A stretch of 61,472 nt of DNA, filler included, from Jimgerdemannia flammicorona (Eukaryota), in the NCBI GenBank assembly GCA_003990765.1. It is 3 parts of 3 records of this genome, joined end to end, with 100 filler letters (N's around TTAATTAATTAA, not from the genome) between each part and the next. Parts side by side here need not be neighbours in the genome. Positions count along the whole stretch, not along the records: positions 1 to 20,432 come from RBNJ01001687.1; 2 more parts are not named here. One strand, written 5' to 3'. Below the pieces are notes generated by a model, which was given only the letters and a program-made list of their open reading frames with translations, was not told the DNA's origin and made no database searches. The position numbers and the translations under genes were made by a program. This document shows, piece after piece, positions 3,350-60,304 of this stretch (the first letter of the stretch is position 1; every line of letters begins with the position of its first letter).

Positions 3350-5125
3350 TGGTATATTACTTATAAGACTCATTCCTTTAACACATTGTTCAAACTTTAG
3401 TCTTAAAAGGGCTTTTATAAGTAAATTGATAATTATATACTCTGTGGGGATATATACTAAGTATATAGTACTATTTTCTATATATTCTTATACAAAATAA
3501 TAGTGTATATCAATATATTTTATTTATTATAATATATTGAATTCTTAGTAAATACTATTATTGATTGATTATCTTACTTAATTAGTATAGAGTTCTTCTG
3601 AGTGAAGTTGAGCTCTTTTAATAGTTTGCAAAGCTATATGGTTTCTTTTATTACTAATGACAATTCCTGATACTCTACCTATATTAATAATATTATCATA
3701 GAACTCTGCTTATATATTTGCTATAAGATTGCAGACTCTTTATCATAAATTAGTAATTATCAAATTATCTACCTAATTCTTACTTAATCTATTATCACTA
3801 TTACTCAATATAAGCATATAGTATAATATATTCTTAAGATATCTGAATATTCTCTTAACAGTACTTTAATGTGAATTATCATAGTGGGAGAAATACTATA
3901 CTACCTTATTTATAATATATAATATATCAGATCTTGTTTCTAGTATAAGATATATAAGAGAATTAATTGCTTGCTGATAAGATATATCTTTGGTACTATT
4001 CTTGGCTAGTATATTGTTATAATTCTTGAGTATAGAGTTTGGCTTTCTTAACTTTATAGAAGTTTCTATAGAAGTATCAACAGGCTTGCATTTATTTATA
4101 TTAAAATGTTTGAGGATTATTTGAGTATATATTACTTGTAAGAGATATATAGTATATGTATTTTTATTATATATGATAGATATTCTCAAAAGGATAGATA
4201 TATCACCTATATCTATTATCTTAAACTCTTAGCATAGAGCTTCTTTGACTTTATTAAGCCTCTTCTTACTAGTAATGATAATTATTTTATTTACCCAAAT
4301 GCCAATAAATACTATACTACTATTATCATAGTATTGGATATATATATAATTATCTGCTTTATAATGGAATCTATCATTAAAGAGATGTTTATCAATCTTT
4401 TTATTCTATAATTATATTACTTATTTAATACTATATAGTTCCTTATATAATTTTTATATAAACTCACTATTTTTATAACCTTATAGTTGATGGAGGTATA
4501 GTTTAATATCTACATCACTATTTAGGAATACTATCTTTATATCAATTTGATATATTTTCAGATTATATAGCATACTAATTGCAAGGAGTATTCTAAGTAA
4601 AGTAAGCTTAAATATTAGTAAAAATGGCTCATTATAGTCTATGCTATAATTTTGCAAGTATCTCTTAATAATGAAATGAGTTTTATATCACTCTATACTT
4701 CTATTGATATTGTACTTTATTCTATAGACCTACTTAGATTCAATCATTTAACAATTTAGTAGAAGAGGTATGAGATCTCATATATTATTCTCAATGAGTG
4801 AATCATATTCCTCATCTATTATGTATTTCTATTTTTTGCTATTCAGAGATTATATTGCTTCATCATATGTATTTAGCTCACCAAATATTATAATATATAT
4901 ACATTTATATACTTCAGTATAGCTCATGTAGTCCTGTTGTTACCATTTAAGACTTGCTGATATATCCTAATAACTTCCTAAATTGAAATGAGTTTCTTGA
5001 TAAAAATTGGAGTGTTTTTGCATTTGTTTACTCTTTATGAAGGATCTCTAGTTACTGGAGATTTTGCTATTATTTTCATCTTTGATCTCTATTATTCTTG
5101 ACTTAGATAATTCTGACTTAGATAT
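3350..5125 (-). pseudogene. Heavily decayed Ty1/Copia pol remnant (RT + RNase H)
   Basis: Minus-strand translation gives QIDIKIVFLNSDVD (cf. QMDVKTAFLNGDL), YQQAINSLIYLILETRSDI (cf. YQxxVGSLMYL..TRPDI) and KYIDIHYYFV (cf. KHIDIRYHFVRE). Boundaries approximate. Confidence 0.85.
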
Positions 5126-5592
5126 TGTAATATAGTGGATGCTTACTCTTGAAAGTACATTGGATTTCTGTATCTTGAAAACTTGACTATTCTGACTCTC
5201 GCAGAGTCTCTTGAAATTGCAGGGGAGGGTGGGTGAGTTCAAAGTGTATCTGCCTGCAGGCTTACTAGTTCCTTTGCTATCTCTTTACTTTGAACTATTT
5301 TGATCTGAGGTTTATTCACTTGAAGATACTGGGTTATTTATATAAGTTTGCTAGCTATGAGATAGTTACTGGGTTATGTGGCTAAGTTATGAGTCATTTA
5401 ATACTTTGTGAAATATTTAGCCAGTTGTGAAATGCTATACTATATTAAGAAGCTCGATCTTGTACTTTGCGAAATATTTAGCAAATGGCAGAATCAAGGA
5501 CTGCTAACTATATGGCTATACTACTTTGGGACTGGGTGTAATCAAGTGTCTGTTCCCTATTTCCTTCTTCCAAATCTGGCTATACCATCACA
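5126..5592 (-). repeat. Family B 3' LTR (467 bp)
   Basis: TG...CA ends. Homologous to 23427-23893, 29663-30129 and 52936-53402. PPT (AGGAGGAAG on minus strand) adjacent at ~5595-5603. Confidence 0.95.
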
Positions 5593-5629
5593 ACTTCCTC
5601 CTGAATAGATGATCTCATCCCTGAAGTAT

Positions 5630-6091
5630 CTATTCAAACTCCCAAGCTTCAATAGTCTATATGGTCTTATATTGTGCGATTTGTTGTATTACTGTTTCCC
5701 AATGGTGTTGCCTGACTTAGTCGAAGTCTGAGGGAGTCACTCCTTACAGGTGGGCTAGTGCTGATTCATCCTCTCAGAATAGCTTATGGATTCTCTTAGC
5801 AATGGTGATCTGGGAATAGGAGAGCTGGCATTCTGCGATCCAATTTTCTTTGGTCATTTCTGGGTCTTGGTTGAGTACTTGGCCAAGTTTGAAGTACTCT
5901 TGAAATTCATTTCGATGCTGATAGGTCTTAAAGTGTGAGATTCAAGAGAGATGAGTCTGCATGATGCTTTGGATACTATCATAAGACTCCTCTATGGTCG
6001 GAGGCTCAGTGGTACACCATTGTCTCTCAATGGCTCTTTGGGCAGCACTAGTGATCTTGAGTGCTATTGCAGTACTTTTGTTACTAGCCAT
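5630..6091 (-). pseudogene. Family B accessory ORF3 (153 aa), copy 1
   Basis: ATG overlaps the last integrase codons and the TAG lies just before the PPT. Same 462-nt length as 23931-24392. Confidence 0.8.
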
Positions 6092-7152
6092 AATATTTCT
6101 TGAGTTGGTTTCAGTGAATGGTAGTAGGAATTATTGTATCTGAGGGTTTTCGTAGCCAAAAGGTGGTCCCTTTTATATCTTGCATAAGATAAGGTCCTTC
6201 CCACTTAGGCTCCAGTTTTTGTAACCATGAAGCTTCTACCATATTCCAATATATCAGGACTTTGTCTCCTATCTTGATAATCTCTAAGGGTTTGTGGGTC
6301 TTTTCCACATTTCTCTATTGTAGTGTCTGTACCTTGGTTATGTAATCCTCAGCCTTCTTTCTGATTTGGTATAGTCTCTATATTTCCATGTCCACATGTT
6401 TCCATACAGCATCTCTATTGGATGATAGGGTTCCCTGAGAATATTCTTCTCCGAACAGTATTTCTCGAGGAGTAAAGTGAGTACTTTGTGATCAGATATC
6501 CCAGAGAGCAGATAATGCTATTGGCAGATAGTGATTTCAGTTCTCATTGTTATCACAGATCTTGGTAATAATGTTCTTGAGGGTTTTGTTAGTCCTTTCT
6601 ACTTGTCTGTTTTCTTGAGGGTAATATGCCATAGTTCAAATATGCTGGATCTTATACTTCTTGTAGAGAACTTCGAAGAACTGGTTCACGAATTCTGTTC
6701 CCCTATCTGTAGTTACTTGTGTGGGGGTCTTGAACTGGCAGATAATTTCCTTGTGGAAGAAATCAGCGATTAACTGTGCATTGGCTTCCATAAGGGGTCC
6801 CACTTCTATCCATTTTGTAAAAAGGTCTATGATGACGATGATGTATCAGTTGCCAGTCAAAGTCAAGGGTAGAGGGTCAATTATATCTATTGCAATGTGG
6901 GTGAATGGTACTGGTTCTATGTATGCTGATCCTGGGGCTCAATTTCATTGGTCTTGTTTCTGTTTCTGGCATTTGTTACAGGTCTTGATGAATTGTCTGA
7001 TATCTTCCTCCATCTCTGGCCACTATATTGTTCTTCTTGCCTTATCATATGTATTCATTCCTCCTAGATAGCAAAGTTTGTGTACTGATTTCATCACTTA
7101 CTCCTTCTTATGTTCTGGTATGACTAGTAGTTTTTCTTTCTTCAGTGTTTCT

Positions 7153-7154
<2 letters not shown>

Positions 7155-7185
<31 letters not shown>

Positions 7186-7264
7186 GTCACATGGACTCCA
7201 TCCTTTATTAAGCCAATACATCTGTCTAGTTTCTATATAATACACTGTGCCCCACCCCTACCGA
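7155..7264 (-). mobile_element. Extremely 5'-truncated LINE 3' tail (polyA + ~80 nt) inserted in family B integrase
   Basis: Absent from copy 2. T28 tract, flanked by a ~17-bp TSD (TTCTTCAGTGTTTCTCC 7138-7154 / TTCTTTAGTGTTTCTCT 7265-7281). The tail TAATAAAGG..GTCCA.GT.ACTA(n) resembles the LINE end at 41054-41090. Confidence 0.85.
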
Positions 7265-8051
7265 TTCTTTAGTGTTTCTCTGTCAGTTTCAAATTGTTTC
7301 TATGTTCTGTTGATAATCATTTATGTCCATTCTTCCAGATGTTGGGGCATCTTTTGCCATCCCAGGTATGTGATAATTCTGTAGTAGAGCTCCTTATTCA
7401 TGATGATTTTGTGGAAGTGGGGTCCTTCGGGGTATCCATGAGAGGGCATTGGCATTGGTGTTGGTTCTTCCAGAGTAGTGTATAATGGTTACATCATAAG
7501 CTTGCAACTTAATTATCCATCTGGCATAGATTCCTTTGGGTTGTCTGGTTGTCAGTAGTCAGGTAAGAGCTGAGTAGTCCATTTGGATGGTGAAGTGTCT
7601 TCCAGCCAAGTAGTAGTGGAACTTTTCAATGGCCCAGATGACTGCAAGGCATTCCAACTTATAGGATTCATATTCTTTTTCAGCTCCTTGGGTTCCACAG
7701 CTAAGGTATGCGATGACATACTCCACTTTATCTTTCTTTTGAGCTAGGACTGCTCCTAGTCCTTGTGTACTTGCATCAGTCTGTATGATGAATTCTTGAG
7801 TCCAGTCAGGTCTTCTGAGGATGGATGCCTGGGTCAGTCTGACCTTGAGTTCATCAAATGCTTTTTGTTGTCTGTCAGTCCACTGGAACTTAGTATCCTT
7901 CTTGTTAAGTTCATAGATTGGTCCTACAATATTAGAAAATTCTCTAATAAATCTGCAATAATAGGAGGTGAGTCCCATGAAGGCTTGGGCTTCTGTAATA
8001 GTGGTGGGTCTTGGGTATACTGCTACTGCTTGTATCTTGAGGGGGTCCATG

Positions 8052-10124
8052 TGTAAGCGCACAACCTTCAAGCCACCAAAATTACACATCACCCTCCGAA
8101 CAAGCCACTGAAATCACACGTGAGCCCTGAACAAATCTGGAAATCACCTGCTCGATCACGAAGCTGAGTCAAACCAAAGTCACAGTGCACAAAGCTGAGT
8201 CAATACAAAGTCACAGAACACAAGATCTACACAAATGGAATCTTACCAATTAGGATCAAATGCATATATACTGAGCACCAAGATGCATCAAATCAGAGAA
8301 CTAAAACAAAACAACAACTACAACTTCCAAACACACAAACATGACTACTGAGATCTATACTCGCATCTGCACTGACATTTGGAATGCTATTGTCAACCGA
8401 GCCACACCCTCTCTGCCCCTCATGAATATCCATAGCCTAGCACCCCTCTACTTCATAGAAGCCCATTGGAATACTCTGAACATGCTTAGCAAGGCCCACC
8501 GATTCAGACAAATCTCAAGCTACTACTAGATCAGCTGCCTCCTGGAAGACATAGTCGAACACCACCATGATACAGACATTACTGAGATGTCTCAACACCA
8601 GAAGCTCATCACCCACAAACATCGAGAACTCTTCTATGAGTATAGTACCATTATTCCCTACCTCCAAGTTACCACCAGCAAAATGGTTGCTACCCTGTCC
8701 TATGGCCAAATTGATGACATGATACAAGAACTTAACCACAAGTACCTCGAGTATGTTGAAACCACAGACAGAACCTTCCCACACCCCAATGATCATATCC
8801 TGCAAATGCCCCAAGTTGGATATGCCATGAAAGACATCTATGATATAATCCACTTTGATGAAGATGAAGTAGAAGATAATGATCCCTCTGATACCGACAT
8901 GACCTCTAGCCAAGGATCCCTACCAACTTTGATCACACCACCAACCCTGCCGATGAACTTACAACAGTTCATAACCACCTATGAGACTTATTGGGACAAT
9001 GACCACTGGCATGAATATCAACCTACATTCATCCTCGATTACTTCAACTACAATGAAGAGACTGGAGAACACAATCTATACCTTCAGACAACCCTTGAGA
9101 TTGAACCAACCACTCCACCACCCAAGTACAAGTGACATGAACCACAGCCACCAGCTTACTATAACCCTGTGACTCATAGTACTGTAACCTATAGAAGATA
9201 TGCAGACAGCGAATCCGATGAAAGTGAAAATGATGCACCCCTCCTTCACCCACCAACACCTTATCCAGCATACGAGACAGATGATGCCATCCTGTGGGAT
9301 GGAGATGAAGTTCCAATGTATTATTACCTCAGTGAACAAGGAGAAGTAATCCACGAACCACTCTTCCTAGATGACTACTTTATCAGAGATGATGCAATCA
9401 ATGGTGATGTCATTGAAGACTACCCAGACAGTGCCTAAACCCATAAATAGCCTAGCAGTCATAGTATAGTTAGATTAGCCTTGTACGACATGACTGTGAA
9501 CTGACTCAGCAGTCAGATGATCTCTTGACATATCAGATCACACTTGTACTACATGACTGCATTCTGACTCAACAAGACACTTAGTGCTACATCCATATTC
9601 AGCATAGTCCAGATAGTCCCTCACTAGTATAAATACCCACTCCCCCAGACCTCAGAATCTCAGACTGGAACAGACTTGAACACACAAGAACATTCCTGAA
9701 TACTTTCCTACAATATCCCTTCACACAACTACTCCTAGTATAGCAATATCATGAATAGCGAATAAACCTATTTAATAACCCACAAACCACTCTTAAGTAA
9801 ATCCACTTCCCGTTAGGTCCCACTCCTAACCCCCTCATGAAATTTCCAAATTGGGTATTGTCTGCAGTGATATGCCAATTCAACTAAGCTGGTCTTAGTT
9901 TTCTTGAACTTCCTGAAATACAGAAATCCTGAACATCCAGAACTAGTCCGAAAAAGGACTTTGGTTGAGACATCAACCCGATCTTGAAATCAATAAGCAT
10001 AGAGGACATACTCCATATGAAATTGATCTTGACCATAAGAAAACAGTCTTCCAGAATATCCAGAACTTCCAGAAAGCCCTTCCAGAACTATGTAATGGTT
10101 ACCCTAAAAAGCAACCCTCTTACA
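8052..10124 (+). repeat. Family A 5' LTR
   Basis: Direct repeat of 16424-18497 and 57259-59322. TATAAATA at 9628-9635. Confidence 0.97.
8341..9438 (+). pseudogene. LTR(U3)-encoded accessory protein of family A, 365 aa with an acidic Pro/Tyr-rich C-terminus
   Basis: Track ORFs 8341-8529, 8587-9135 and 9169-9438 are one frame broken by two stops (TAG, TGA). Start and stop are conserved in all three LTR copies. Confidence 0.85.
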
Positions 10125-10127
10125 ACT

Positions 10128-10139
10128 TGGTAGCAGCGG
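10128..10139 (+). promoter_or_regulatory. Primer-binding site, initiator-tRNA-Met-like (TGGTAGCAGCGG)
   Basis: 3 nt after the LTR end. TGGTAGC is complementary to the conserved ...GCUACCA 3' end of tRNA-iMet. Confidence 0.7.
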
Positions 10140-11086
10140 TTTACACTCCAATTCCGCTTCAAGATGCTTCCTCACCCTACTACAAAACCTTCTGAGAATT
10201 TCTACAAGTTGGTATAAAGCCCAACCTCTGAACTGGAATTTATCATGAACCATCTAACAATCTGGAGAGAATTGAACCTGATGTACAAGAACAATTTGAC
10301 CTCTACACCTGCAACAAGTGGGATAAACTTCATTTAAAGAAAGAAGTACTCTGGTTAAACCAGCAAATAGGTGAAACCCTATTCACCAAACTCCTTGCAC
10401 TACACCCAGCAAGTCAAGATGAAGAAGGTCTTATTGAAGCCTTCTTTACTCTTCTCAACAAGAGTTTTGTCAGCTCCACAAATCCAAGCGATCTAGGACA
10501 ACCAGCAGCAGTCTTTCTAGCCTTAGTTCCTCACGAAGCCCAAGCCTCTGTAGCCAAGTGGCTCAACTCTACTGACTTTTACCATACCAGGACCAAGACT
10601 GCATTATACTACCGATTCCAGAACAGCAAGGCCTGCCATATTCTTAAAGAAGAAGCAAGAGAAATCCTTCATCAACTACCTGACCCTGAACCTGAAGCAG
10701 GCCCTGCTACAGCCCTACCTGAATCTGAAACCAATACTGAACCTGAACTTGACTTTGAATTAAGTCCATCTGAAATCAGATATACAACTGATTCTCTCTA
10801 CTTTGATGCCAAGCAAACCCAATTACAGGGAGACCAAACTGAAGAGGAGGAGGAGTATCTCACTGAATTCGATCCCGGATACACCGCAGAAGGAGATGTA
10901 CTCCCATCAGGACAGAATACACCTACACAACAACAAACAGCTATCTATCAAGCCCTTACTCCAGATCCACAACTACAACTTCAGCAACTTACACAGATCC
11001 AAAGAACCCCATCACACTCTGCACCAGTACCTCAAGTAGTACCAGTAACACCACTACTAGCAGTTCAACCACCTCCAGTAAACAAC

Positions 11087-14000
11087 ATGGTGAACCAACA
11101 GATTCTTGATCTCACAGTCCAAGTAGCTATAATGGTAGCAACCATTACTGCCTTAGCTAAACAGATCTGACCTACAAAAAATCTGAGCCTACCTACCTTC
11201 AATGGTACTATACAAGAAGTCCAAAGCTTCATTAGTGTAGTTGACACCAACTTCAAAGCCAATCAATGGACCAATGAGTGAGTTGCTGACTGTATTCTGA
11301 CAAACAATCAAGACCACACTCTGGAACAACTCTTTGCTACCACTACAGCCTATGTCCGCCAAGTTATTACATTCTTCCGAGGACCTGCCGAAGAATGGTG
11401 GCAAACCCTTCCTGAAAAACCCCTCACATGGGATACCTGACCTGCAGTAGTTGCTCAGAATGCAGCAAACAATGCCCCAGGATATGGAGCCCATCCTGCA
11501 GCCCCTGGACTCAAACAACTTATGATTGCTCAATATCACAGTGAAACTATGATTTCCGAATCTCGAGTAAAACTCCACAGCCTCAAATTTGATGTATATG
11601 GCAAAGAAGAATTCGAAACCTTCTATACAAAACTCGAGTCACTCCTGAACACTGTTGGCCTAGGATATATCACCAATGATGAAGCATGAAATGGTACAAG
11701 AGCAGACCATTTATTCGATGCCCTGCCTGAATGGCTTACTAGAAAAATCCGAGAACAAGGCCACCCAGTTGGTTGTGACCACCAACAATGGTACCTGGTA
11801 AGAATCAAGACTATGGTCAAGCGAATCCTAACAGCTGGACCAATTCTGCCCTGAAGACAATTCAACAACAAGGAAAAGACTTGGACCAAGAAAGAAGAAC
11901 CCAAGCATGAAGCATCCCGAGCTCCCTCCACATCCACCTCTTGGACACTGAGAAATCATGAACCTACCCAGCCAAGTACCTTCAAGAAACTTACTGAAGG
12001 CGAAAGGAATGAACTTTGAAGAAGCAGAGCATGCTTCTATTGCCAAAAGACAGGACACATGGCCAGTGCCTGCCCTAACCGAAAACCCTGAACAGCAACA
12101 AGAGCAACCATTACCACTCTGCACCACCTCAACAACCTGACCACCAGAACACTGAACTTTGTCAAGTTAAGACAAACTACTAAAGCCCCAACCAAAGGAA
12201 GTCAGAAAGCAGCTGGATATGACCTGTATACAGCTGAAGAAGCTACAGTTTCCAACTGAGAAGTCAAACAAGTCTATACAGGAATCAGCATCCAAATCTC
12301 TGAAGGACATATTGGAAGAATATACTGTCACAGCAGCCTAGCATTGAAAGGACTCTCAGTAGAAGGAGGAGTCATTGATGAGGATTATACAGGCGAAATT
12401 ATTGTCCTCATCCAAAACTACAGTTGGACACCCTTCAAGATCTCTAGTGATTTCTGCATTGCCCAGATCCTATTTGAGAAAATCGAGTCAACCCTGATAG
12501 TCAAAGAAGTCTCTGAACTACTACCTACCATCTGAGGATCCAAAGGATTTGGCTCATCCAACAAGGCCCCAGCCCAACCTACCATGAACAAAGAAGAACA
12601 ATTCTACAAGAAAATCGAAGATGGATATGTACCAAGTGGCCAATGTCCCCATGGCATTGGAATGTACTCTTCCCAAATGATTGATAATTGCTTCTCTTGT
12701 GTCAATGAACTGGCTCAAAGAAGAACCAATAGAAGGAAAGCTCCTACAACTGAAATCATCACCATTGGATCAGACAAACTGCTCACACTTAAGGCTTTTG
12801 TCAACTGAGCACCTGTTAAGATTATGATAGATAGTGGTGCCTCAGACAACTTCATCAATGAAGAGACAGCGAACAGACTCAAGGTCTTTACCTCTCCAGT
12901 ACAGCAAACTTAAGCAGTTGCTACAGCTGATGGGACCTCACATGTTATTAGCAAAGAAGTCCGCAATCTACCCCTCCAAATTGGCGACTACCAAGTACAT
13001 ATTACCCTCCAAATCGTACCACTTCCTGACAATGAAATCATCCTTGGGACTCTATGGTTAAAACAAGAGAACCCTATGATCGATTGGGTAAACCACTTTC
13101 TGACCATCAAGAAAGGACACCACAACTTCAAACTGCAAGGCGAAAAGGACCCACTTAATTCTGGCAACCCTGTACTAAAGATCACCCACATCAACAAGCT
13201 ACAACTCAAGAAATTGGCCAAGAAATGCCCTCTCTTCGCCATCTCCATCTGCCCATCCAAAGGAGAACCCGAGAACTCTGAAGAAGACTTTTCCAAAGTT
13301 GACAGCCATGTCAGACCACTACTCCAGAAATTTTGAGACATATTCCCAAAGAAGCTCCCAAAAGGCCTACCTTCTAAGCGAGCTGTAGACCATACCATCA
13401 AGACTATTCCAGATGCCAAACCTGCCTTCAAGTCAATCTACCACATATCTCTGAGAGAAATCAATGCACTCAAGAAAGAAATTGATAAACTCCTAGAATA
13501 AGGATTTATCAGACCCAGTGTATCACCTTATGGTGCACCAGTCCTATTTGTTGTCAAGAAAGGAGGAGACCTGCAAATGTGCATTGACTACTGCGATCTC
13601 AATGGACAGACCATCAAGAACTGTTGCCCACTACCAAGGATCAATGAAATATTCGATAGACTTACCAACCCACAATTCATGAGCTCTTTTGACCTGTGAA
13701 ATGGTTACTAGCAAATTGCCATGAAAGAAGAAGACATCTACAAGACAGCCTTCTGAACTTGCTATGGACACTTTGAGTTCCTGATTATGCCCTTTGGCTT
13801 AACTAATGCTCCAGCAACCTTCCAGACACTGATAAATACCATTCTGCATCCATACCTAGACAAATTCATCATTGTCTACATTGATGACATCCTAGTCTTT
13901 GGCAAAACCCTGGAGGAACATCTTGAACACCTTGAACTAGTACTACTGAAACTCTGACAAAACCGACTCTTTGCAAAACTCAGCAAGTGCAAATTTCTCC

Positions 14001-16219
14001 TGAAAGAAATTCAATTCCTTGGACATATTGTCACTCCAAATGGAATCAAAGTGGATCCCAGCAAAATCTCCGCAATCAAGGATTGGCCCAGACCAAAGAA
14101 GCTGAAAGACCTCCAGTCATTCCTGGAATTAGCAAACTATTACAGGCGATTTGTTGCCAACTTTGCTAAAATCGCTACCACCCTCACCCAAATGACCAAG
14201 TATAGCAAGAAACTAGAACAACCCTAGACCATAAAACAAGAGAAAGACTTCAACAATCTTGTAACTTGGGGACCCAAACAAGATACCGCCTTTCAAGCAC
14301 TGAAAGATGCCCTGATAACTACCCCAGTACTTCAAGTGGCAAATCCTGCCCTACCATATGAAGTCAATACTGATGCCTCTGACCTAGCTCTTGGAGCAGT
14401 ACTCATGCAAGAAGGACACCCTGTGGCCTATCATTCCTACAAGTTCAATGATGCTGAAATTAACTATGCAATCCATGAGAAGGAAATCCTAGCCATTGTA
14501 GACACTCTGATCAAATGGCAACCATATCTAGAAGGAGCACACTTCACTGTATTAACTGACCACAAGTCATTAGTCAACATCAAGACTCAGGCTACCCTTT
14601 CCCAAAAGCAAGCCAGATGAATGAAAGTCCTCACCAACTTTGACTATGAAATCCAGTACCGCCCTGGCAAGGAAAATATTGTTGCTAATGCAATCTCCAG
14701 ACCACCCATTGAAGAAGTTATTCAAACTCTCACCTTGGTTACAAACTCCATCATGGAACAAATTACCACAGCATGCACTGATGATAAAGAAGCTCAAGTA
14801 CTCCGTGAAATCCTAAACAGTGATGATGCTGATAAATATACCTGGTATAATCAATACCAACTCAAGGACAATGCTATCTACTACAAAGACAGACTGTATG
14901 TCCCAAACAACTGAGACCTCTGAAGGACTATCCTATTTGAATATCATGATACCCCTACAGCTGGATATTTAGGATTTGATAAATGTTATGAAGTTATCTC
15001 CTGAAACTTCTATTGGCCCCATATGGCAGATCAGCTCAAAACCTACATCACTTCCTGTGATGCCTGCCAACAAAACAAGTCCTCAACACTAGCAAAACCT
15101 GGCTTACTACACCCTATCCCAGTACCATTCGCAAATTGGGAACAAATCTCTATGGACTTCATTGTACAACTACCCTGAACCAAGAATAGGAAAGATACAA
15201 TTGTTGTCTTTGTGGACTATCTCAGCAAACAAGCCCACTTCGTACCTACTATCACTACTGCAACAGCACCAGACATAGCCACACTCTTGTTTGATAACAT
15301 CTTCTGCTGTCATGGTCTTCCCAAGATCATTGTTAGTGACTGAGACCCGAAATTCACCAGCCACTTTTGGAAAGCCCTCCATGCACACCTTGGAACAAAA
15401 CTTGCACTATCCACAGCCTTTTATCCAGAAACTGATGGCCAAACTGAAAGAATGAACCAAACTCTGAAACAAATGCTAAGAAACTATGTTTCCTACAGAC
15501 AAGATGACTGGCATGAACACCTCACTGCAGTTGAGTTTGCCTATAACAATAGCAAGCAAGCCTCTCTTGAAATGACCCCATTCTTCACCAACACTGGACA
15601 AAACCCAAACACCCCTTTGACACTCATCCAAACTACTGAAGAACCCTCCACAGTCGAAGCTATTGAAGAATTCTTACTCTGAATGTGTAATCTAAACCAG
15701 ATCACAATTGAGAATTTATCGTGAGCCCAAGAACAACAGTCACAGTATGTTAACCAACACTACCAAGAAGAAACCTTTGATATTGGAGAAAAGGTTCTAC
15801 TAGACATTAGAGGATACTGAGTTGACAACCTCAAGTATAGACCATCTACAAAGCTGAACAGCAAGTTCATTGGACCATTTGAAGTCATTGCACAAGTTTC
15901 TCCAACCTCTTACAAATTGGCGCTACCAGACACCATTAAGATTCACCCAGTCTTTAATGTTCAACATCTCAAGTGATACAATGAAAATGATGAGGAGCTA
16001 TTCCTAAACCAGACCACCAAATCACCTGCACCTGTTATTATTAATGATCAAGAAGAGTACAAAGTTGAACAAATCCTCAACAAACGTGGCAACAAGAGCC
16101 ACCCTGAGTACCTTGTCAAATGGAAAGGTTATCCAATCCACAATGCAACCTGGGAACCCAAGACCAATCTCCAGAATGCTACCGACCTAGTTCAGGAATA
16201 TGATTCCTTGAACAACTAG
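11087..16219 (+). pseudogene. Family A single-frame gag-pol: gag, CCHC, dUTPase, CPHG motif, protease, RT, RNase H, integrase, chromodomain
   Basis: CFYCQKTGHMASAC (12032), IMIDSGASDNF (~12825), VYIDDIL (~13875), NTDASDLALGAVL (~14366), ISMDFIVQLP (~15147), KFIGPFEV (~15863), [17 protein letters not shown] (~16109-16160). All in one frame; stops are mostly TGA at Arg positions. Confidence 0.95.
12152..12560 (+). pseudogene. dUTPase domain of family A, between gag CCHC and protease
   Basis: AAGYDLY, TGISIQI, SSLALKG, GGVIDEDYTGEI, IAQI and (R)GSKGFGSS match the trimeric dUTPase motifs. Confidence 0.93.
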
Positions 16220-16409
16220 AACCAAATACTCTACACCTACCCATATATTATCCTTCCGAACATTATAATTATTGGAGACCAAACCAAGAACTCAGCAAAA
16301 CAAGACAAGAATACTGACCCTCTGGAAAAAATGGTAAAACGGAAAGCAAGCCTATTTTTTCTATACCACTGAACAAAATTAGAAGGCCCCGATGAGGACA
16401 TCAAAAGCT

Positions 16410-16422
16410 AAGAAGGGGAGAG
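16410..16422 (+). promoter_or_regulatory. Polypurine tract of family A
   Basis: AAGAAGGGGAGAG immediately before the 3' LTR. Confidence 0.9.
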
Positions 16423-16423
16423 T

Positions 16424-18497
16424 TGTAAGTGCACAATCTCCAAGCCACCAAAATTACATGTCACCCTCCGAACAAGTCACTGAAATCACATGCGACCCCT
16501 GAACAAATCTGGAAATCACCTGCTCGATCATGAAGCTGAGTCAAACTGAAGTCACAGCACACAAAGCTGAGTTAATATGAAGTCACAGAACACAAGATCT
16601 ATACAAATGGAATCTTACCAATCAGGATCAAATGTATATATACCGAGCACCAAGATGCATCAAATCAGAGAACTAAAACAAAACAACAACTACAACTTCC
16701 AAACACACAAACATGACCACCAAGATTTATATCCACATCTGCACTGACATTTGGAATGCTATTGTCAACTGAGCCACACCCCCTCTGCCCCTCATGAATA
16801 TCCATAGCCTAGCACCTCTCTACTTTGTAGAAGCCCATTGGAATGCTCTGAATATGCTTAGCGAGGCCCACCGAATTGGACAAATCTCAAGCTACTACCA
16901 GATCGGCCACCTCCTGGAAGACATGGTCAAACACCACCATGATACAGACATTACTGAGATGTCTCAACACCAGAAGCTCATTGCCTGCAAACATCGAGAA
17001 CTCTTCTACAAGTACAGTACCATTATTCCCCACCTCTGAGTTATCATCAACGAAATGGTTGCTACCCTGTCCTATGGCCAAATTGATGACATGATACAAG
17101 AACTTAACCACAAGTACCTCGAGTACATTGAAACCACAGACAGAACCTTCCCACACCCCAATGATCATATCCTGCAAATGCCCCAAGTTGGATATGCCAT
17201 GAAAGACATCTATGATATAATCCACTTTGATGAAGATGAAGCAGAAGACAATGATCCCTCTGACGCCGACATGACCTCTAGCCAAGGATCCCTACCAACT
17301 CTGATCACACCACCAACCTTGCTGATGAACTTACAATAGTTCATAACCACCTACAAGACTTATTGGGACAATGACCACTGGCATGAATATCAACCTGCAT
17401 TCACCCCTGATTACTTCAACTACAATGAAGAGACCAGAGAACACAATCTGTACCTTCAGACAACCCTCGAGATCGAACCAACCACTCCACTACCCAAGTA
17501 CGAGTGACATGAACCACAGCCACCAGCTTACTATAACCCCATGACTCATAGTGCTGTAACCTATAGAAGATATGCAGACAGCAAATCTGATGAAAGTGAA
17601 AATAATGCACCCCTCCTTTGCCCACCAATACCTTATCCAGTATATGAGACAGATAATGCCATCCTGTGGGACGGAGATGAAGTTCCAATGTATTATTACC
17701 TCAGTGAACAAGGAGAAGTAATCCGTGAACCACTCTTCCTAGATGACTACTTCATCAGAGATGATGCAATCGATAGTGATGTCATCAAAGACTACCTAGA
17801 CAGTACCTAAACCCATAAATAGCCTAGCAGTCATAGTATAGTTAGATTAGCCTTGTATGACGTAACTGTGAACTGACTCAGCAGTCAGATGATCTCTTGA
17901 TATATCAGATCACACTTATACTACGTGACTGCATTCCAACTCAGCAAGGCACTTAGTGCTACATCCATATTCAGCATAGTCCAGATAGCCCCTCACTAGT
18001 ATAAATACCCACTCCCCCAGACCTCAGAATCTCAGACTAGAACAGACTTGAACACACAAGAACATTCCTGAATACTTCCCCACAATATCCCTTTACACAA
18101 CTACTCCTAGTATAGCAATATCATGAATAGCGAATAAACCTATTTAATAACACACAAACTACTTTTAAGTAAATCCACTCCCCATTAGGTCCCACTCCTA
18201 ACCCCCTCACGAAATTTCCTAATTGGGTATTGTCTGCAGCGATATGCCAATTCAACTAAGCTGGTCTTAGTTTTCTTGAACTTTCTGAAATACAGAAAAT
18301 CCTGAATATCCAGAACTAGTCTGAAAAAGGACTTTGGTTGAGATGTCAATCCGATCTTGAAATCAATAAGCATAGAGGATGTACTCTATATGAAATTGAT
18401 CTTGACCATAAGAAAATGGTCTTTCAGAATATCCAGAACTTCCAGAAAACTCTTCCAGAACTATGTAACAGTTACCCTAAAAAGCAACCCTCTTACA
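16424..18497 (+). repeat. Family A 3' LTR (accessory ORF copy at 16713-17810)
   Basis: Direct repeat of 8052-10124. Sampled differences are mostly CA/TG pairs from ancestral CG. Confidence 0.97.
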
Positions 18498-20134
18498 CCA
18501 TGTGTGTTCCATCTTGGTTGATGATGTGGCTGAGATAGGAGATCTCAATTTCTGCGAATTTGTATTTTTTGGGCTTAATATATAGGTTATGCTTTCTCAG
18601 TCTTTCCATTATCTGCCAGATGTACTGTAGGTATTTTTCTGGTGTCTGGCTGTAGATGATTACATCATCAATGTAGACCATCATCCATCTTCCCATGTCA
18701 TAGTAGAAGATTTTGTTCATCATTCACTAGAAACTTGCTGGTGCATTGCACATTTCAAATGGTATTCATAGGTAGACGTAGGTTCCGTCTGGGGTGATGA
18801 AAGCTGACTTTTCACTTGCCATGTCTGTAAGTCCGATTTGGTGGAATCCTGAGTATAAGTCCAAAGTGCTGTAGTACTATTCTTCATCTCCTAGTATTAT
18901 GAGGATGTCATTGATGAGGAGCAGTGGTTGGTGATCCTTCTTGGTAACCATCTTGAGCTTTCTGTAGTCAACACAGAGTCTTGGGGCAAATTTTCCAGAC
19001 TTGCTACTTTTTTTTGGGGCTAGTACAACAGGTGAGGACCAGGGGCTGCTGGCTTCTTTAATGATGCCAGCTTCTTCCATCTGCTTGATTTCTTCTCTGA
19101 GCCATTCTCGGTAGGCTGGTGGGACAGGTCTTGCTTTCTGATAAATTGGTTCAGTGTCTCCAGTATCTACTTCATGATAGTAGTGTGGGGTCTTTCCTTT
19201 GATGTCCTTGAAATCTGTGGCAAGGACATCTTTGAATTCATGGAGTATTTTCTTGAGTTCTTTCTTGAGTGGAAATTCATTTCTAATGGTGTAGCTGTGC
19301 TTGCTTGTGTTTTCCTCCTTCTTATGCTTGAGTTCAGTGATCTTGGTGCTGGCAAATACTCCTCTTCCTGTGGATCCAAATTCTTTCTTTCCTCTTTTTG
19401 TTTCCTCCAGCTTCTTAACTTCTATGATCTTTGGTTATAGGGTTGGAAAGATCAACATTTGTGCCAATCAGTCCTTCTTCTTGACTGGAAATGGGATTGT
19501 AGGATTGTGATTCCTAGCAATGAGTAGAATTTCTCCAGTATAGTCTGAATCAATGACTTCTTCTTTGATTGTGATTTTGCTTCTAGCCAGGCTACTTCTT
19601 GTCTTGAGAATCCCAACATGATCCTTTGGGATGGTCATCTCTAGTCCAGTTGCAAGTAGGGTGGTTGTCTGGGGTTCCAGTACAGTCTCTTCTACTATAG
19701 CAATGTCCATTCTGGCTACATTTTCTGACTTGTATTCTGGCAAGACTGCATCAGGGTAGATCTTTCAAATCTTGACCTTGATTTCTTCTTCATCATCACT
19801 ATCCTCCAGGAGGGCTGGTGGTTCATCATCTTCCTTCTTCTCTTCTTCTCTGATCTGTTTTTCAAGAGCTTTCTGTCTTCTTTCCTGGTGGATCTTCTTG
19901 ATTCCAATAGTGCACTGGTAGCAATCATTGATGTGCTCCATACAGTACATCTTGATCCCATAAGGACGGACTCCTTGTAGTGCATAGCCTTCTGCGATCT
20001 TCTTGCACCATTCTTCTTCACTCATCCATCCAACTTTCTTCTTTTTTGGAGTAGTCATCATATAAGCTTCCTCTTGCTCACTCTCTTCTTCCTTCATATC
20101 AGGCAGGACTCCTTTGTTGACATTGATGGGAATC

Positions 20135-20432: not shown

Positions 20433-20532
20433 NNNNNNNNNNNNNNNNNNNNNNNNNNNNNNNNNNNNNNNNNNNNTTAATTAATTAANNNNNNNNNNNN
20501 NNNNNNNNNNNNNNNNNNNNNNNNNNNNNNNN
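20433..20532. other. Artificial contig-joining spacer (N44-TTAATTAATTAA-N44)
   Basis: Six-frame stop linker, exactly 100 bp, identical to 40954-41053. Confidence 0.97.
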
Positions 20533-23000: not shown

Positions 23001-23930
23001 AGTGAGAGGCAATGGTCACTGCCATGGTCAACAGAAGAAGATTGTTTGTTGATACTATAAGTAGCATCAACATGATGAGCATGTGGTTAGCGGTAGTGGA
23101 TATAGTGTTGTTTGAGTTAGGATATTTCCTTAGCAAGAAATTTCCTCAAAATTATACTCCTCTAATTTTACAGAGAAAATATACAGAATTTCACATAATA
23201 TCTAACCACAACCAGTGGAAAGTGAGTACAATAATTGCAGACAATTTTGACTTAAGTTGTTGATGTAATAGTATGAAAGAATTTTTTGGAATATTATTGC
23301 TGATGTTTCCTTATTTATAATTACTTTTTATACTCTTAAAAAAAAATTTACTTGAATATTATATTTATGAATCTGACAAACAAATGAGATTGTACCAAGC
23401 TTATACTTATGTTCTTAAATTGATATTGTAACATAGCAGATGCTTACTCTTGAAAGTACAACAGATTTCTGTATCTTGAAAACTTGACAGTTCTGACTCT
23501 TGCAGAGTCTCTTGAAGTTGCAGGGGAGGGTGGGTGAGTTCGAAGTGTATCTGCCTGCAGGCTTACTAGTTTCTTTGCTATCTCTTTGCTTTGAACTATT
23601 TCGATCTGAGGTTTATTCACTTGAAGATACTGGGTTATTTATATAAGTTTGCTAGCTATGAGATGGTCACTGGGTTACATGGCTAAGTTATGAGTCATTT
23701 AACACTTTGCGAAATGTTTTGCCAGTTGTGAAATGCTATACTATATCGGGAAGCTCAATCTTGCACTTTGCAAAATATTTAGCAAGTTGCGAAATCGAGG
23801 ACTATTAACTATGTGGCTATACTACTTTGGGACTGGGTGTGATCAAGTGTCTATTCCCTATTTCCTTCTTCTGAATCTGGCTATACCATCACAACTTCCT
23901 CCTGAATAGATGATCTCATCCCTAAAGCAT

Positions 23931-24392
23931 CTATTCAAACTCCCAAGCTTCAATGGTCTGTATGGTCTTGTATTGCGTGATTTGTTGCATCACTGTTTCC
24001 TAATGGTGTCGCCTGACTCGGTTGAAGTCTGAGGGAGTCACTCCTCGCAGGTGGGCTAGTGCTGATTCATCCTCTCAGAATAGCTTGTGGATTCTTTTGG
24101 CAATGGCGATCTGGGAATAGGAGAGCTGGTATTCTGCGATCCAATTTTCTTTGGTCATTTCTGGGTCTTGGTTAAGTACTTGGCCAAGTTTGAAGTACTC
24201 TTGGAATTCATTTCGATGCTGATAGGCCTTGAAGTGTGAGATCTGAGAGAGGTGAGTTTGCATGATGCTTTGGATACTGTCATAAGACTCCTCTATAGTT
24301 GGGGGCTCGGTGGTGCACCATTGTCTCTCGATGGCTCTTTGGGTAGCACTAGTAATCTTGAGTGCCATCGCAGTACTTTTGTTACTGGCCAT
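23931..24392 (-). pseudogene. Family B accessory ORF3 (153 aa) at the env position
   Basis: MASNKSTAMALKITS...AWEFE*. The start overlaps the integrase end (cATGgccagTAA). Two internal stops are transition-derived, and one reads TGG in copy 1. Confidence 0.85.
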
Positions 24393-27084
24393 GATATTTC
24401 TTGAGTCAGTTTTGATGAATGGTAGTGGGGATTATTGTGCCTGAGGGTTTTTGTAGCCAAAAGGTGGTTCCTTTTATATCTTACACAAGGTAAGATCCTT
24501 CCTACTTGGGCTCCAGTTTTTGTGACCATGAAGCTTCGACCATATTCTGATATACCAGGACTTTGTCTTCTATCTTGATAATCTCCAAGGGTTTGTGGTT
24601 CTTTTCCGCATTCCTCTATTATAGTGTCTGCACCTTCATTATGTAATTCTCAGCCTTCTTCCTGATTTGGTGTAGTCTCCATATTTCCATGTCTACATGT
24701 TTCCATACAGCATCTCCATTGGATGACAAGGTTCCCTGAGAACATTCTTCTCTGAACAGTATTTCTCGAGGAGTAAAGTGGGTACTTTGTGATCAGATAT
24801 CTCAGAGAGCAGATAATGCTATTAGTAGATAGTGATCCCAGTTCTTGTAGTTATCGCAGATCTTGGCAATAATGTTCTTGAGAGTTTTGTTGGTCCTTTC
24901 TACTTGTCCGTTTCTTTGAGGGTGATATGCTGTGGTCTGAATATACGGAATCTTATACTTTTTGTAGAGAACTTTGAAGAACTAGTTCACGAATTCGGTT
25001 CCTCTATCTGTAGTTACTTGTGTTGGGGTCTTGAACTGGCAGATGATTTCCTTGTGGAAGAAATCAGCGATTGACTGTGCATTGGCTTCCATAAGGGGTC
25101 CCGCTTCTATCCATTTTGTAAAGAGGTCTATGATGACAATGATGTATTGGTTGCCAGTCAAGGTCAAGGGTAGGGGGCCGATTACATCCATTGAAATGTG
25201 GGTGAATGGTACTAGTTCTATGTGTGCTGATCCTGGGGCTTGATTTTATTGATCTTGTTTCTATTTCTGGCATTTGTCGCAGGTCTTGACAAATTGTCTG
25301 ATATCTTCCTCCATCCCTGGCCACCATATTGTTCTTCTTGCCTTGTCATATGTATTCATTCCTCCTAGATGGCCAAGTTTGTATACTGATTTTATCGCTT
25401 GCTCCTTCTTGTGTTCTGGTATGACTAGTAGTTTTCCTTTCTTCAGTGTTTCTCCATCAGTTTTGAATTGTTTCCATGTTCTGTTGATAATCATTTGTGT
25501 CTATTCTTCCAGATGTTGGGGCATCTTTTGCTGTCCCAGGTATGTGATAATTCTGTAGTAGAGCTCCTTATTCATGGTGATTTTGTGGAGATGGGGTCCT
25601 TCGGGGTGTCTGTGAGAGGGCATCTGCATTGGCATTGGTTATTCCAGAGTGATGTATGATGGTTATATCATAAGCTTGCAACTTCATTATCCATCTGGCA
25701 TAGATTCCTTTTGGTTATCCAGTTGTCAGTAGTCAGGTGAGAGCTGAGTGGTCCGTTTGGATGGTGAAGTATCTTCTAGCCAAGTAGTAGTGAAACCTTT
25801 CTATGGCCCAGATGACTGTGAGGCATTCCAACTTATAGGATTCATATTCTTTTTCAGCTCCTTGGGTTCCATGGCTGAGGTATGCAATGACATACTCCAC
25901 TTTATCTTTCTTTTGAGCTAGGACTGCTCCTAGTCCTTGTGCACTTACATCAGTCTGTAGGATGAACTCTTGAGTCCAGTCAGGTCTTCTGAGGATGGGT
26001 GCCTGGGTCAGTCTGACCTTGAGTTCATCAAATGCTTTTTGTTGTTTGCTAGTCCACTGGAACTTGGTATCCTTCTTGTTAAGTTTGTAGATTGGTCCCA
26101 CAATATTAGAAATCTCTAATAAATCTGCAATAATAGGAGGTGAGTCCCATGAAGGCTTGGGCTTCCGTAACAGTAGTGGGTCTTGGGTATGCTGCCACTG
26201 CTTGTATCTTGAGGGGGTCCATGTGTGTTCCATCTCGGTTGATGATGTGGCGAGATAGGAGATCTCAATTTCTGCAAACTTGCACTTCTTGGGTTTAATA
26301 TAAAGGCCATTTTGTCTTAGTTTCTCCATTATCTGCAATATGTGCTGCAGATGTTCCTCAGGTGTCTTGCTGTAGATGATTACATCATCGACGTAGACCA
26401 TCATCCATCTTCCCATATCATAGCAGAAGATTTTGTTCATCATTCACTGGAAACTTGCTGGTGCATTGCACATTCCAAATGGCATTCATAGGTAGATGTA
26501 GGTTCTGTCTGGAGTGATGAAAGCTGACTTTTCACTTGCCATGTCTGTGAGTCCAATTTGGTGGAATCCTGAGTATAAGTCCAAGGTACTGTAGTACTGT
26601 ACTTTGTCTCCCAGTATTATGAGGATGTCATTGATGAGGGGCAGTGGTTGGCGATCCTTCTTGGTAACCATGTTGAGTTTTCTGTAGTCGACACAGAGTC
26701 TTGGGGCGAATTCTCCAGGCTTGCTACCTTTTTTCAGGGCTAGTACAACAGGTGAGGACCAGGGGCTGCTGGCTTCTTTAATGATGCCGGCTTCTTCCAT
26801 CTGCTTGATTTCTTCTCTGAGCCATTCTCAGTAGGCTGGCGGGACAGGTCTTGTCTTCTGATAAATTGGTTCAGTGTCTCCAGTATCTACTTCATGATAC
26901 ATAGTAGTGTGGGGTCTTTCCTTTGATATCCTTGAAATCTGTGGCAAGGACATCTTCAAATTTGTGAAGTATTTTCTTGAGTTCTTTCTTGAGTGGAAAT
27001 TCATTTCCAATGGTGTAGCTGTGCTTGCTTGTGTTTTCCTCCTTCTTATGCTCAAGTTTGGTGATCTTGGTGTTGGTGAATACT

Positions 27085-27500
27085 CCTCTTCCTATGGATC
27101 CAAATCCTTTCTTTCCTCTTCTTATTTCCTCCAGCTTCTTAACTTCTATGATCTTTGATTGTAGGATCAGAAAGATCAACATTTGTGCCAATCAGTCCTT
27201 CTTCTTGACTGGAAATGAGATTGTAGGATTGTGATTCCTAGTAATGAGTAGTATTTCTCTGGTGTAGTCTGAATCAATGACTCCTCCTTCGATTGTATTT
27301 TCACTTCTAGCCAGGCTACTTCTTGTCTTGAGAATCCTGATATAATCCTTTGGGATGGTCATCTCCAGTCCAGTTGTAAGTAGGGTGGTTGTCTGGGGTT
27401 CCAGTACAGTCTCTTCTACTATAGTGATGTCCATTCCGGCTGCATTTTCCGACTTGTATTCTGGCAAGACTGCATCAGGGTGGATCTTTCGAATCTTGAC
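27085..27500 (-). pseudogene. dUTPase domain of family B, between protease and RT
   Basis: AAGMDI, TGLEMTIP, RSSLA, GGVIDSDYTREI, AQMLI and RGKKGFGS. Confidence 0.93.
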
Positions 27501-40953: not shown

Positions 40954-41053
40954 NNNNNNNNNNNNNNNNNNNNNNNNNNNNNNNNNNNNNNNNNNNNTTA
41001 ATTAATTAANNNNNNNNNNNNNNNNNNNNNNNNNNNNNNNNNNNNNNNNNNNN
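40954..41053. other. Artificial contig-joining spacer
   Basis: N44-TTAATTAATTAA-N44. Confidence 0.97.
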
Positions 41054-46920: not shown

Positions 46921-47952
46921 GACCTGTGTATTCATCCCCATGTATCTTATTCTATATACCATGCTCTCTCTATTACCAGAGAGAACTCAGCCATATGCTA
47001 ATAACTAAAAACACATACCCAAAATCTCAATATATACAAAACTATACTCAAGCTAAATAGTAAAGTCCCTACTACTTCAAAGAGAATATCAGATAAAGAA
47101 AAACTCTCATCAAAGTACATTATGGTGAGTAAAGTCTAGTTCTCTCAGATGAGATGAGTAGAGAACTTACATGTAAGATAAAAGGAGACCTCTAATACTC
47201 TACTACTCAAGTCTATAAACCTTGATCACATTGCTATATTAGTTTTCAGTTCTAGTTAAGTATAGCCAAAATGCCTAAAATAAGTAACCTTAAGCCCCCT
47301 AACCCCCCTCAATGACCAGGGCCCAACCCACTGAATCACCAAAAGAGACTAAGAGTGATACCTATTACCTAATCACTTCATACTAATCAAAAGGCCCTAC
47401 TGAAGTAACATCTACCCCAACTCTAATGACTATCCCAAGCCTAACATTCTACTGATTTACTATTATGTATCACTCTTCCTCTTATTTGTAACAACCATCT
47501 CTTCTCTTATCTCAATACTATTCAAAAAACAATCATCTATATCAGAACTATACTTACTAAGAAGCTTACCAATATCAGAGAACTCCACTATAAGTACTGA
47601 AGACCTGCAAATAACCTATACTGAGCACTTGATACCCAAAGTTGACTAACTCTCTACATAACTATAATACACTAAAACAACATCTTGTTGGCAACAGCAA
47701 AAGGAAGAAAACACCATACCAAAACAGATATACTCCAGATATAGCCAAAGATATCAGAAACCATAAAAAAGTGGAGAAAACACTGATCAGACATTAATAA
47801 AAGGACAACTCATCACTATTGCCTCCCTCCCACTGCCCTGCAACAGGTACAGCAAACCAATCCAAGATAGAAGGGGTAGTAATTGTAGAAAGTAGACTCA
47901 GAAGGTTGCCTACCAAACCATTGTGACCAATAAGGTAGCGGAGAAAGGAACT
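46921..47952 (-). mobile_element. Family S retroposon copy 3, lacking the last ~150 nt (LINE 5' end abuts there)
   Basis: Colinear with ~150-1177 and more G>A decayed. Confidence 0.75.
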
Positions 47953-59480: not shown

Positions 59481-60304
59481 CAGATATAGCAGCTAAGTAT
59501 ATATAATATATTCTTAAGCTTTGAATATATTTTGAAATTCTATATATTATACTATTTATACCACTTATTATATATCTATCTCTAGTACTTCTGAGCAGAT
59601 ATAATGATATCTCACTTATCTTGTTGAGGCTAGAAATGATAGAAATCATATTTGAATATAATAATTAAATATATATTTAGAAATTATATTTGAATATAGT
59701 GTATCTATAAGTTCTGGATCATACTTATACATAATATGATATCTAAGTACTATATTTATTTAGTATTTCAAAATTAACTATATTTTGAGATTTAAAATTA
59801 GCTATTATTATTGAAATACTAGACTGATTATTATACTTTAAATACATATATTCACAAATTGTTTCAGGATCTAAAGTATCTTTTTTAGCTATTATAAGAT
59901 CTTTACTACTTGAAAAAACTCTCTCAATTAGAGAACTTATTACTGAGATAGCTAAGTAGTTATATATTATTTTTATTAAGTTTGGGAAATTTCTACTATG
60001 GTCCTAATATTCCCAATTAATTAAATCAATTAGAGAAACTCAAATAATATTTTGAATTGATCTAATTCAAATATAAATTTTCAACTCACTTACTACTAAG
60101 ATAATATATCAACTTTTACTTAAGATTAAACAGTTTTACTTTTTAAATAAGTATCTATCTCCTGCTCAGAATTTATTATCAGTTTTTGTCTTTTGTTAAA
60201 TTTATATTTATATAGTATAGTATTAATATTATCTTCTACATACTTCTTTATAATCTTTAGGACTTATTTGATTAATTAATTCAGATAGAGAAGTATAGTT
60301 TTTA

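Follow-up and report, generated by a model that had tools for sequence, protein, structure and literature searches.

Genes placed in the U3 region of a long terminal repeat (LTR) are known from a few retroviruses but hardly from retrotransposons. In mouse mammary tumor virus (MMTV), a vertebrate retrovirus, the superantigen gene sag lies in U3 of the betaretroviral LTR, and its product, Sag, is a membrane glycoprotein; nef of the human and simian immunodeficiency viruses (HIV/SIV) and bel/bet of the foamy viruses, which use an internal promoter, are 3' accessory genes that overlap U3. Here we describe a comparable arrangement in LTR A, the LTR of a retrotransposon (element A) in the genome of Jimgerdemannia flammicorona (GCA_003990765.1). 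The window, i.e., the whole stretch of DNA analyzed, is 61,472 nt long, filler included, and joins 3 parts of 3 records; positions 1-20,432 are RBNJ01001687.1, and parts lying side by side need not be neighbors in the genome. Our reading, to which we give a probability of roughly 0.65, is that an old chromovirus-type Ty3/Gypsy element, now dead, has its 5' LTR at 8052-10124 and that the U3 of this LTR holds the remains of a sense, lineage-specific accessory gene.

As in MMTV, the whole accessory open reading frame (ORF) of LTR A lies 3' of the polypurine tract (PPT), in the predicted U3 and upstream of the predicted main LTR promoter, and hence in both LTRs. Element A differs in being a chromovirus-type retrotransposon without env; its accessory frame has no Pfam similarity and encodes no hydrophobic segment. 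The nef and bel/bet genes likewise share DNA with U3, but their overlap is partial and they start upstream of the PPT, whereas the LTR A frame is wholly inside the LTR. By analogy, the arrangement would work like that of sag and partly like those of nef and the foamy-virus bel genes, without any sequence relationship to them.

Little is understood about the accessory genes of LTR retrotransposons in general. Additional ORFs (aORFs) are described in the internal region of such elements in the portions of Vicient and Casacuberta (2020; PMC7264820) drawn on here. The aORF-3S of those portions, a lineage-specific orphan sense ORF downstream of pol that most copies of a family retain (PMC7264820), matches exactly the layout of a second family in the window, family X; the family A ORF differs in lying beyond the PPT, inside the LTR, and in being neither env-like nor equipped with a membrane segment. 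The PosPlaTy3 elements of Postia placenta are fungal chromoviruses with a dUTPase, located at the N terminus of Pol in PosPlaTy3-3, and a figure legend of the same paper names an "add. ORF", described as having no known function, without stating its position (PMC2864245). Element A shares the chromodomain Gypsy backbone and the dUTPase with them; a coding LTR is not described in the sections of that paper used here. According to an excerpt from a third source, bdelloid elements have their dUTPase between protease (PR) and reverse transcriptase (RT) (PMC5408684); in element A, it sits between the gag zinc knuckle and PR. Exact-phrase searching of open-access text gave no relevant description of an ORF located within the LTR of a retrotransposon, a form of searching that leaves a prior report possible.

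The accessory frame of LTR A

Self-comparison of the window aligned the 5' and 3' LTRs of element A at 93.06% identity over 2,074 columns and revealed a third copy of LTR A at 57259-59326, 87.97% identical to the 5' LTR (features are listed in Table 1). The ends of the pair are TG..CA, and a target-site duplication (TSD), CCATG, stands at 8047-8051 and 18498-18502, which bears out the LTR length of ~2.07 kb given in the original prediction. Between the LTRs, Pfam searches in which stops were read as X detected, in a single frame, a CCHC knuckle, dUTPase, PR, RT, RNase H, integrase (INT), and chromodomain (family names gag-asp_proteas, RVT_1, RT_RNaseH_2, Integrase_H2C2/rve/SH3_Tf2-1, and Chromo; E-values of 4e-19 for dUTPase, 9.7e-29 for RVT_1, and 2.7e-16 for Chromo). 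This domain content and order identify element A as a chromovirus-type Ty3/Gypsy element with a dUTPase, and the LTR ends and TSD, the placement of the PPT and of a sequence resembling a primer-binding site (PBS), as well as the order PR-RT-RNase H-INT-chromodomain all agree with that class.

The accessory frame falls within the LTR, on the 3' side of the PPT: the two LTRs start at 8052 and 16424, and the frame starts at 8341 and 16713. It had been described as a 365-codon ORF; a single frame of that length does lie upstream of the main TATA box, but it is not open. There are two internal stops in the 5' LTR, four in the 3' LTR, and four in the solo LTR, which also carries a 4-nt insertion, and the longest ATG-started ORF within LTR A is 182 aa. 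The three copies differ by only one indel inside the frame, and the codon at the second stop site is TGA in both LTRs of element A but TAA in the solo copy.

An intact relative was found in public sequence data. P0003, a 247-aa ORF on a 998-bp contig, was the one match among 406 candidates from a search of 5.8 billion proteins. It aligns with codons 115-364 of the LTR A frame with 158/250 identities (63%) and 204/250 positives (82%), and the gaps are two of 2 aa each, both in frame; its first methionine corresponds to Met115, and the two proteins end at the same place. A phmmer search of 1.84 billion representatives returned P0003 itself only, a search for shorter relatives of P0003 gave none, and the A protein had no match in the JGI metagenome contigs or IMG/VR. 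When the window sequence was evolved neutrally in silico, with transition bias, to P0003-level protein identity (2000 runs), a mean of 3.6 stops accumulated, only 1.75% of the runs were free of stops, and 0/2000 reached the observed share of positives (0.816).

The counts of stops and substitutions point the same way. At 8683-9435, which we regard as the best-supported coding core, there are 1-2 stops in the frame versus 12-33 in the other plus-strand frames, and composition shuffles averaged ~13 stops, none of 1000 being as low as the observed 1-2. Tallied by codon position, the sites at which element A and the solo copy differ numbered [29,17,49] and [26,15,45], a third-position excess in both cases. 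For the same comparison, the Nei-Gojobori ratio of nonsynonymous to synonymous substitution rates (dN/dS) was 0.14 in the core and 0.55-1.15 in two shifted control frames. The N-terminal part (8341-8682) holds 1-2 stops versus 4.9-5.1 expected from shuffles (P of 0.03-0.11) and has a dN/dS of 0.30-0.35; its having been coding is weakly supported by these figures. Judged by these comparisons, the accessory frame was a real gene under purifying selection and is now a pseudogene in all three copies, in agreement with the prediction of a protein-coding LTR A.

An antisense frame of 134-135 aa, without a Pfam match, is also open in the three LTR copies (8518-8919, 16890-17291, and 57724-58128, all on the minus strand). 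It stands in exact codon register with the sense gene, and its openness therefore probably reflects the absence of TTA, CTA, and TCA codons in the sense frame.

The encoded proteins of the A family are acidic (pI of 4.0-4.4; 4.0-4.6 across the A and C families, the latter introduced below) and rich in Pro and Tyr. Their maximum 19-residue Kyte-Doolittle mean is 0.92-0.97, and that of the C family is 0.59-0.74, so neither contains a transmembrane segment; lacking a hydrophobic segment, the A protein is neither env-like nor Sag-like. Pfam assigned no family to the accessory-frame pieces of the window or to P0003, and PDB sequence searches with the proteins gave no relative. For P0003, the ESM Atlas model had a predicted local distance difference test score (pLDDT) of 0.39 and no usable Atlas match; for P0005, the Atlas returned weak (0.86) Basidiomycota hypothetical proteins, which we treat as a lead only. 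The product of the A gene would be an orphan acidic protein of at least 251 codons, probably 365.

Possibly related families and promoter-like motifs

A second gene of this kind occurs in repeat family C, represented in the window by C1 and the inverted, more decayed C2, which form a ~1.85-kb repeat of about 69% identity. The C1 frame has four internal stops; counted against the other frames, the stops number 5 versus 17 and 24, and 4/5 of the ORF indels between C1 and C2 are multiples of three. No BLAST-level similarity between the C1 and LTR A frames was detected. The C ORF has intact relatives in public data; six public relatives share 49-71% identity with it, and L001, a metagenome contig, has an intact 343-codon open frame of the C family (dN/dS of 0.20 against C1). 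Scans with the C-family ORF found one locus in the JGI metagenome contigs and none in IMG/VR. On this evidence, the C repeat is the holder of a second real, orphan, acidic gene. The original prediction treated C1 as an LTR laid out like LTR A. Its motifs and their order are as described (TATAAAA at 55491, then the ORF, then GTATAAATA at 56684), but the frame is interrupted by the four stops, and a search at both copies found no clear termini or TSD, the ends lying in AT-rich DNA. C1 and C2 share roughly the same ends, and C1 has no adjoining internal region.

Family X comprises X1 and X2. As predicted for X2 (then called B), an ORF remnant is located just outside a short LTR of ~470 bp; in the X elements, this sense remnant abuts the PPT.

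Profile comparisons link the three families to different degrees. A hidden Markov model (HMM) of the C family was built without the window's own row and searched against the six-frame translation of the window in overlapping 300-residue pieces. Its best matches outside the C region were X1 (E of 0.01) and X2 (E of 0.016), followed by the N-terminal parts of all three LTR A copies; ranked between X and A was one low-scoring piece (E of 0.027), which is adjacent to, and overlaps, the same-strand ORF remnant of C2. All X and A matches keep the right frame and run colinear with HMM positions 4-121. With hhalign, the X2 ORF and the C family aligned over 99 colinear columns (E of 8.7e-4, probability of 23%), and A residues 8-111 aligned with C residues 21-126 over 101 columns (E of 0.007); 0/100 column shuffles matched the real X-C or A-C score. 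The direct X-A comparison was not significant (E of 0.12). Homology of X and C is probable, to judge from these profiles, and that of A and C is plausible; the A-C and HMM matches also argue that the N-terminal part of the A frame was coding. Two further leads were set aside: the A core without its N-terminal part matched C over 32 C-terminal columns (E of 0.023, probability of 2%), which we did not count, and derivation of the upstream part of C from the GPY/F module of the X integrase found no match by tblastn. At the DNA level, the 3' part of LTR A showed no similarity to the X LTR, C, or L001 (19-69/200 shuffles reached the scores).

The second TATA-like motif predicted ahead of the gene, ATATATA, is present in 3/3 copies of LTR A, once in each (8264, 16636, and 57471); the copies are 88-93% identical anyway. 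Across families, a TATA motif precedes the ATG by 66-88 nt in C1, L001, X1, and X2 (C2 shows it with one mismatch), and in A the distance is 77 nt. The motif ATATAAAAG occurs 6 times in the window versus 1.85 expected, a count reached by 2/100 shuffles, and its distance to the ATG is 88 nt in C1 and 87 nt in both X1 and X2; for L001, it is 66 nt. Moreover, GAATATAAAA is invariant in C1, C2, and L001, amid DNA that is only about 67-69% identical. A dedicated promoter for the accessory gene is plausible from these motifs. As to the main promoter, GTATAAATA has 10 matches in the window versus 1.1 expected and is found in the A, X, and C units; the ORF end, then 170-260 bp, then GTATAAATA is an order common to A, C1, and L001. 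That the LTR A frame would lie upstream of the transcription start of the LTR, in U3, is read from two motifs only, GTATAAATA at 9627 and AATAAA at 9761.

Downstream of the L001 ORF, positions 1161-1255 of the contig match the TATA/AATAAA core of the X LTR at ~70% identity. The comparison scored 31 against a shuffle maximum of 16 (0/200), and it ties a gene of the C type to an LTR core of the X type, in another organism or copy.

Proposed mechanism and competing explanations

The PPT primes plus-strand synthesis and thereby defines the 5' edge of U3. With the PPT upstream of the 3' accessory gene, as in family A, the gene is copied into both LTRs in each cycle and kept in solo LTRs. We suppose that the A gene is distantly related to the accessory ORFs of X, where the ORF is still internal and abuts the PPT, and of C, where it belongs to a 1.85-kb LTR-like unit; the LTR boundary may have moved across a 3' accessory gene, in either direction. 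A TATA-type promoter of its own, 66-88 nt ahead of the ATG, could have driven transcription of the gene into a short mRNA ending at the LTR poly(A) signal, and its protein might have acted in trans for the element. In its fullest form, this proposal holds that a family of orphan acidic proteins is coded inside chromovirus-type LTRs, each gene with its own TATA promoter upstream of the main LTR promoter, that every LTR, solo copies included, is a gene cassette spreading with its element and outliving it, and that the boundary was shifted by PPT relocation in different lineages; as a whole, we regard it as unlikely.

Several observations weigh against our reading of LTR A and against this mechanism. 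There is no open copy in the window, and the stop site shared among the copies suggests that the subfamily may already have been shortened at the time of its movement. The A protein has one relative only in the 5.8 billion and 1.84 billion sequences searched, and that relative begins at codon 115, leaving the N-terminal part outside its alignment. The LTR-LTR pair, expected to be neutral, also has a low dN/dS of 0.24 (11 synonymous and 11 nonsynonymous differences), indicating that transition bias and CpG decay exaggerate the selection signal. AlphaFold2 gave low-confidence folds for both families (pLDDT of 32 for A and 36 for C). For the proposed PPT shift, a common origin and a moved boundary are plausible from the profile links and layouts of X, A, and C, but the A-C similarity is weak (hhalign probability of 5%, HMM E-values of 0.12-1.8), and the 3' part of LTR A has no similarity to the X LTR (64/200 shuffles reached the score). 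As for the promoter, ATATATA is common in the window (147 matches versus 31.5 expected), the ATATAAAAG of X falls inside the integrase coding frame, and the TATA motifs are short and were noticed after the fact.

The points on the promoter would be accommodated by the main rival reading, in which the gene is real and its place in the LTR incidental. As a 3' accessory gene, it would then be expressed from full-length elements alone, through a subgenomic or spliced RNA or from a promoter upstream of the PPT, with the 5' LTR and solo copies silent and the TATA-like motifs due to chance. Retroviral genes overlapping U3 are expressed in this manner (nef and the spliced sag mRNAs), and the abundance of ATATATA and the position of ATATAAAAG in X would then need no further account. 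We consider this unlikely, though far from negligible: GAATATAAAA is invariant in C1, C2, and L001 within such diverged DNA, the same 9-mer stands at 87-88 nt in two families, and a 6-kb intron would be unusual if the host is a fungus, as the weak Basidiomycota lead and the literature on dUTPase chromoviruses would suggest.

Explanations that deny the element a gene of its own fare worse. A frame that arose by chance from the base composition of A/C-rich LTR DNA and at no time coded for protein is close to refuted by the shuffles (~13 stops versus 1-2, 0/1000 as low), by the intact 63%-identical relative with its exclusively in-frame gaps, and by the simulation, codon-position counts, and dN/dS, which all favor coding; this is so even though the plus strand is poor in G and T, which lowers the frequency of stops, the in-register antisense frame at 8518-8919 is open in three copies as well, and both fold predictions are of low confidence. 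Capture of a host gene fragment by transduction, without function for the element, has precedent in that gene capture by LTR retrotransposons is documented in the parts of PMC7264820 cited above. It is nonetheless very improbable here, as P0003 is the sole relative in two protein collections and no Pfam family was found, both LTRs and the solo LTR of a diverged subfamily contain the frame, with a signature of selection, and ORFs that may be related occupy the corresponding position in two other element families.

If LTR A does hold the remains of an accessory gene, a selected gene wholly inside an LTR would be duplicated in every element and retained in solo LTRs, and if it were also driven by a promoter of its own, recombination between LTRs would spread expressible genes across the genome. 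Three layouts in one window (gene outside a short LTR, inside a long LTR, and in an LTR-like unit) would form a natural series for movement of the boundary. With every copy in the window dead, the practical value here is limited.

Feature coordinates, solo LTR, and neighboring repeats

Table 1. Coordinates of LTR A, element A, and related features in the window
Feature	Position	Strand	Details
Accessory-gene frame, 5' LTR	8341-9438	+	365 codons + stop; pseudogene; TAG 8527-8529, TGA 9133-9135
Best-supported coding core	8683-9438	+	251 codons
5' LTR, element A	8052-10124	+	2,073 bp, TGTAAG...CTTACA
3' LTR, element A	16424-18497	+	Accessory frame 16713-17810, 4 internal stops
Element A, whole	8052-18497	+	Decayed chromovirus-type Ty3/Gypsy
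Polypurine tract AAGAAGGGGAGAG	16410-16422	+	Upstream of 3' accessory gene; stops one base short of 16424
PBS-like TGGTAGCAGCGG	10128-10139	+	3 nt past 5' LTR; putative PBS
gag-pol of element A	10232-16270	+	One frame, decayed through point stops only
ATATATA, TATA-like	8264-8270	+	77 nt upstream of the frame's first ATG; motif only
Main LTR TATA box GTATAAATA	9627-9635	+	Predicted
AATAAA, likely LTR poly(A) signal	9761-9766	+	R placed at roughly 9660-9790, from sequence
Solo LTR, family A	57259-59322	+	TSD CTTGT on both sides
Frame remnant in solo LTR	57547-58648	+	4 internal stops + 4-nt insertion
Repeat C1	55167-56999	+	ATATAAAAG 55490; decayed ORF 55578-56420; GTATAAATA 56684
Repeat C2	1387-3276	-	Inverted, more decayed copy of C
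X2 element	~23427-30130	-	Uninterrupted relative of X1; LTRs ~470 bp
ORF remnant, X2	23894-24392	-	From just past pol stop to PPT/LTR start; outside short LTR (~23427-23893)
ORF remnant, X1	5774-6091	-	Counterpart of X2 remnant; X1 is the insertion target of element A

Element A sits inside the older minus-strand element X1, whose parts lie at 5118-8051 and 18503-20133. Its 6-kb gag-pol has many stop codons and zero frameshifts, the observed/expected CpG ratio of LTR A is 0.24-0.29, and variants of LTR A in public contigs differ almost entirely by transitions; the decay of element A fits cytosine deamination of a methylation-like or repeat-induced point mutation-like kind, as far as these patterns go. 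Contigs from several soil-metagenome runs, and from runs of a single organism, contain abundant diverged copies of the LTR A family. In one public contig, the LTR end at 10124 is joined to 14523, with 4,398 bases skipped; this contig would be an internally deleted derivative of the element A family. In four runs, the summed contig depth over 9405-10247 (promoter-R-U5) was 2-4 times that over 8000-9404 (the ORF part), a ratio not used as evidence because contig depth cannot rank parts; the ORF part may be missing or diverged in many LTRs of related subfamilies, for which contig depth is a poor measure.

The original prediction also named solo copies at 1462, 55333, and 57259 as survivors of LTR-LTR recombination. 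The copy at 57259-59322 is a genuine solo LTR, flanked by the TSD CTTGT, whereas 1462 and 55333 fall in the C repeats, which have no clear termini or TSD. Tandem units of ~60 bp border the solo LTR on both flanks (56927-57258 and 59323-59566), indicating that its parent element had inserted into that array; a further tandem array lies at 50819-51637.

Directly upstream of C2 is a very AT-rich relic of a Ty1/Copia RT (4066-4786, minus strand; RVT_2 E of 1e-30), in the orientation expected were C2 its 3' LTR. A 1.1-kb repeat family occurs at 4-1174, 46944-47949, and 60307-61472; this family and C jointly make up a large inverted repeat located at both ends of the window, which consists of joined parts. 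Next to the copy at 46944 is a minus-strand retroelement, GC-rich (50%), with RVT_1 at 42478-42954. N runs of 44 nt occur four times, at 20433-20476, 20489-20532, 40954-40997, and 41010-41053, as two pairs with the members of each 12 nt apart.

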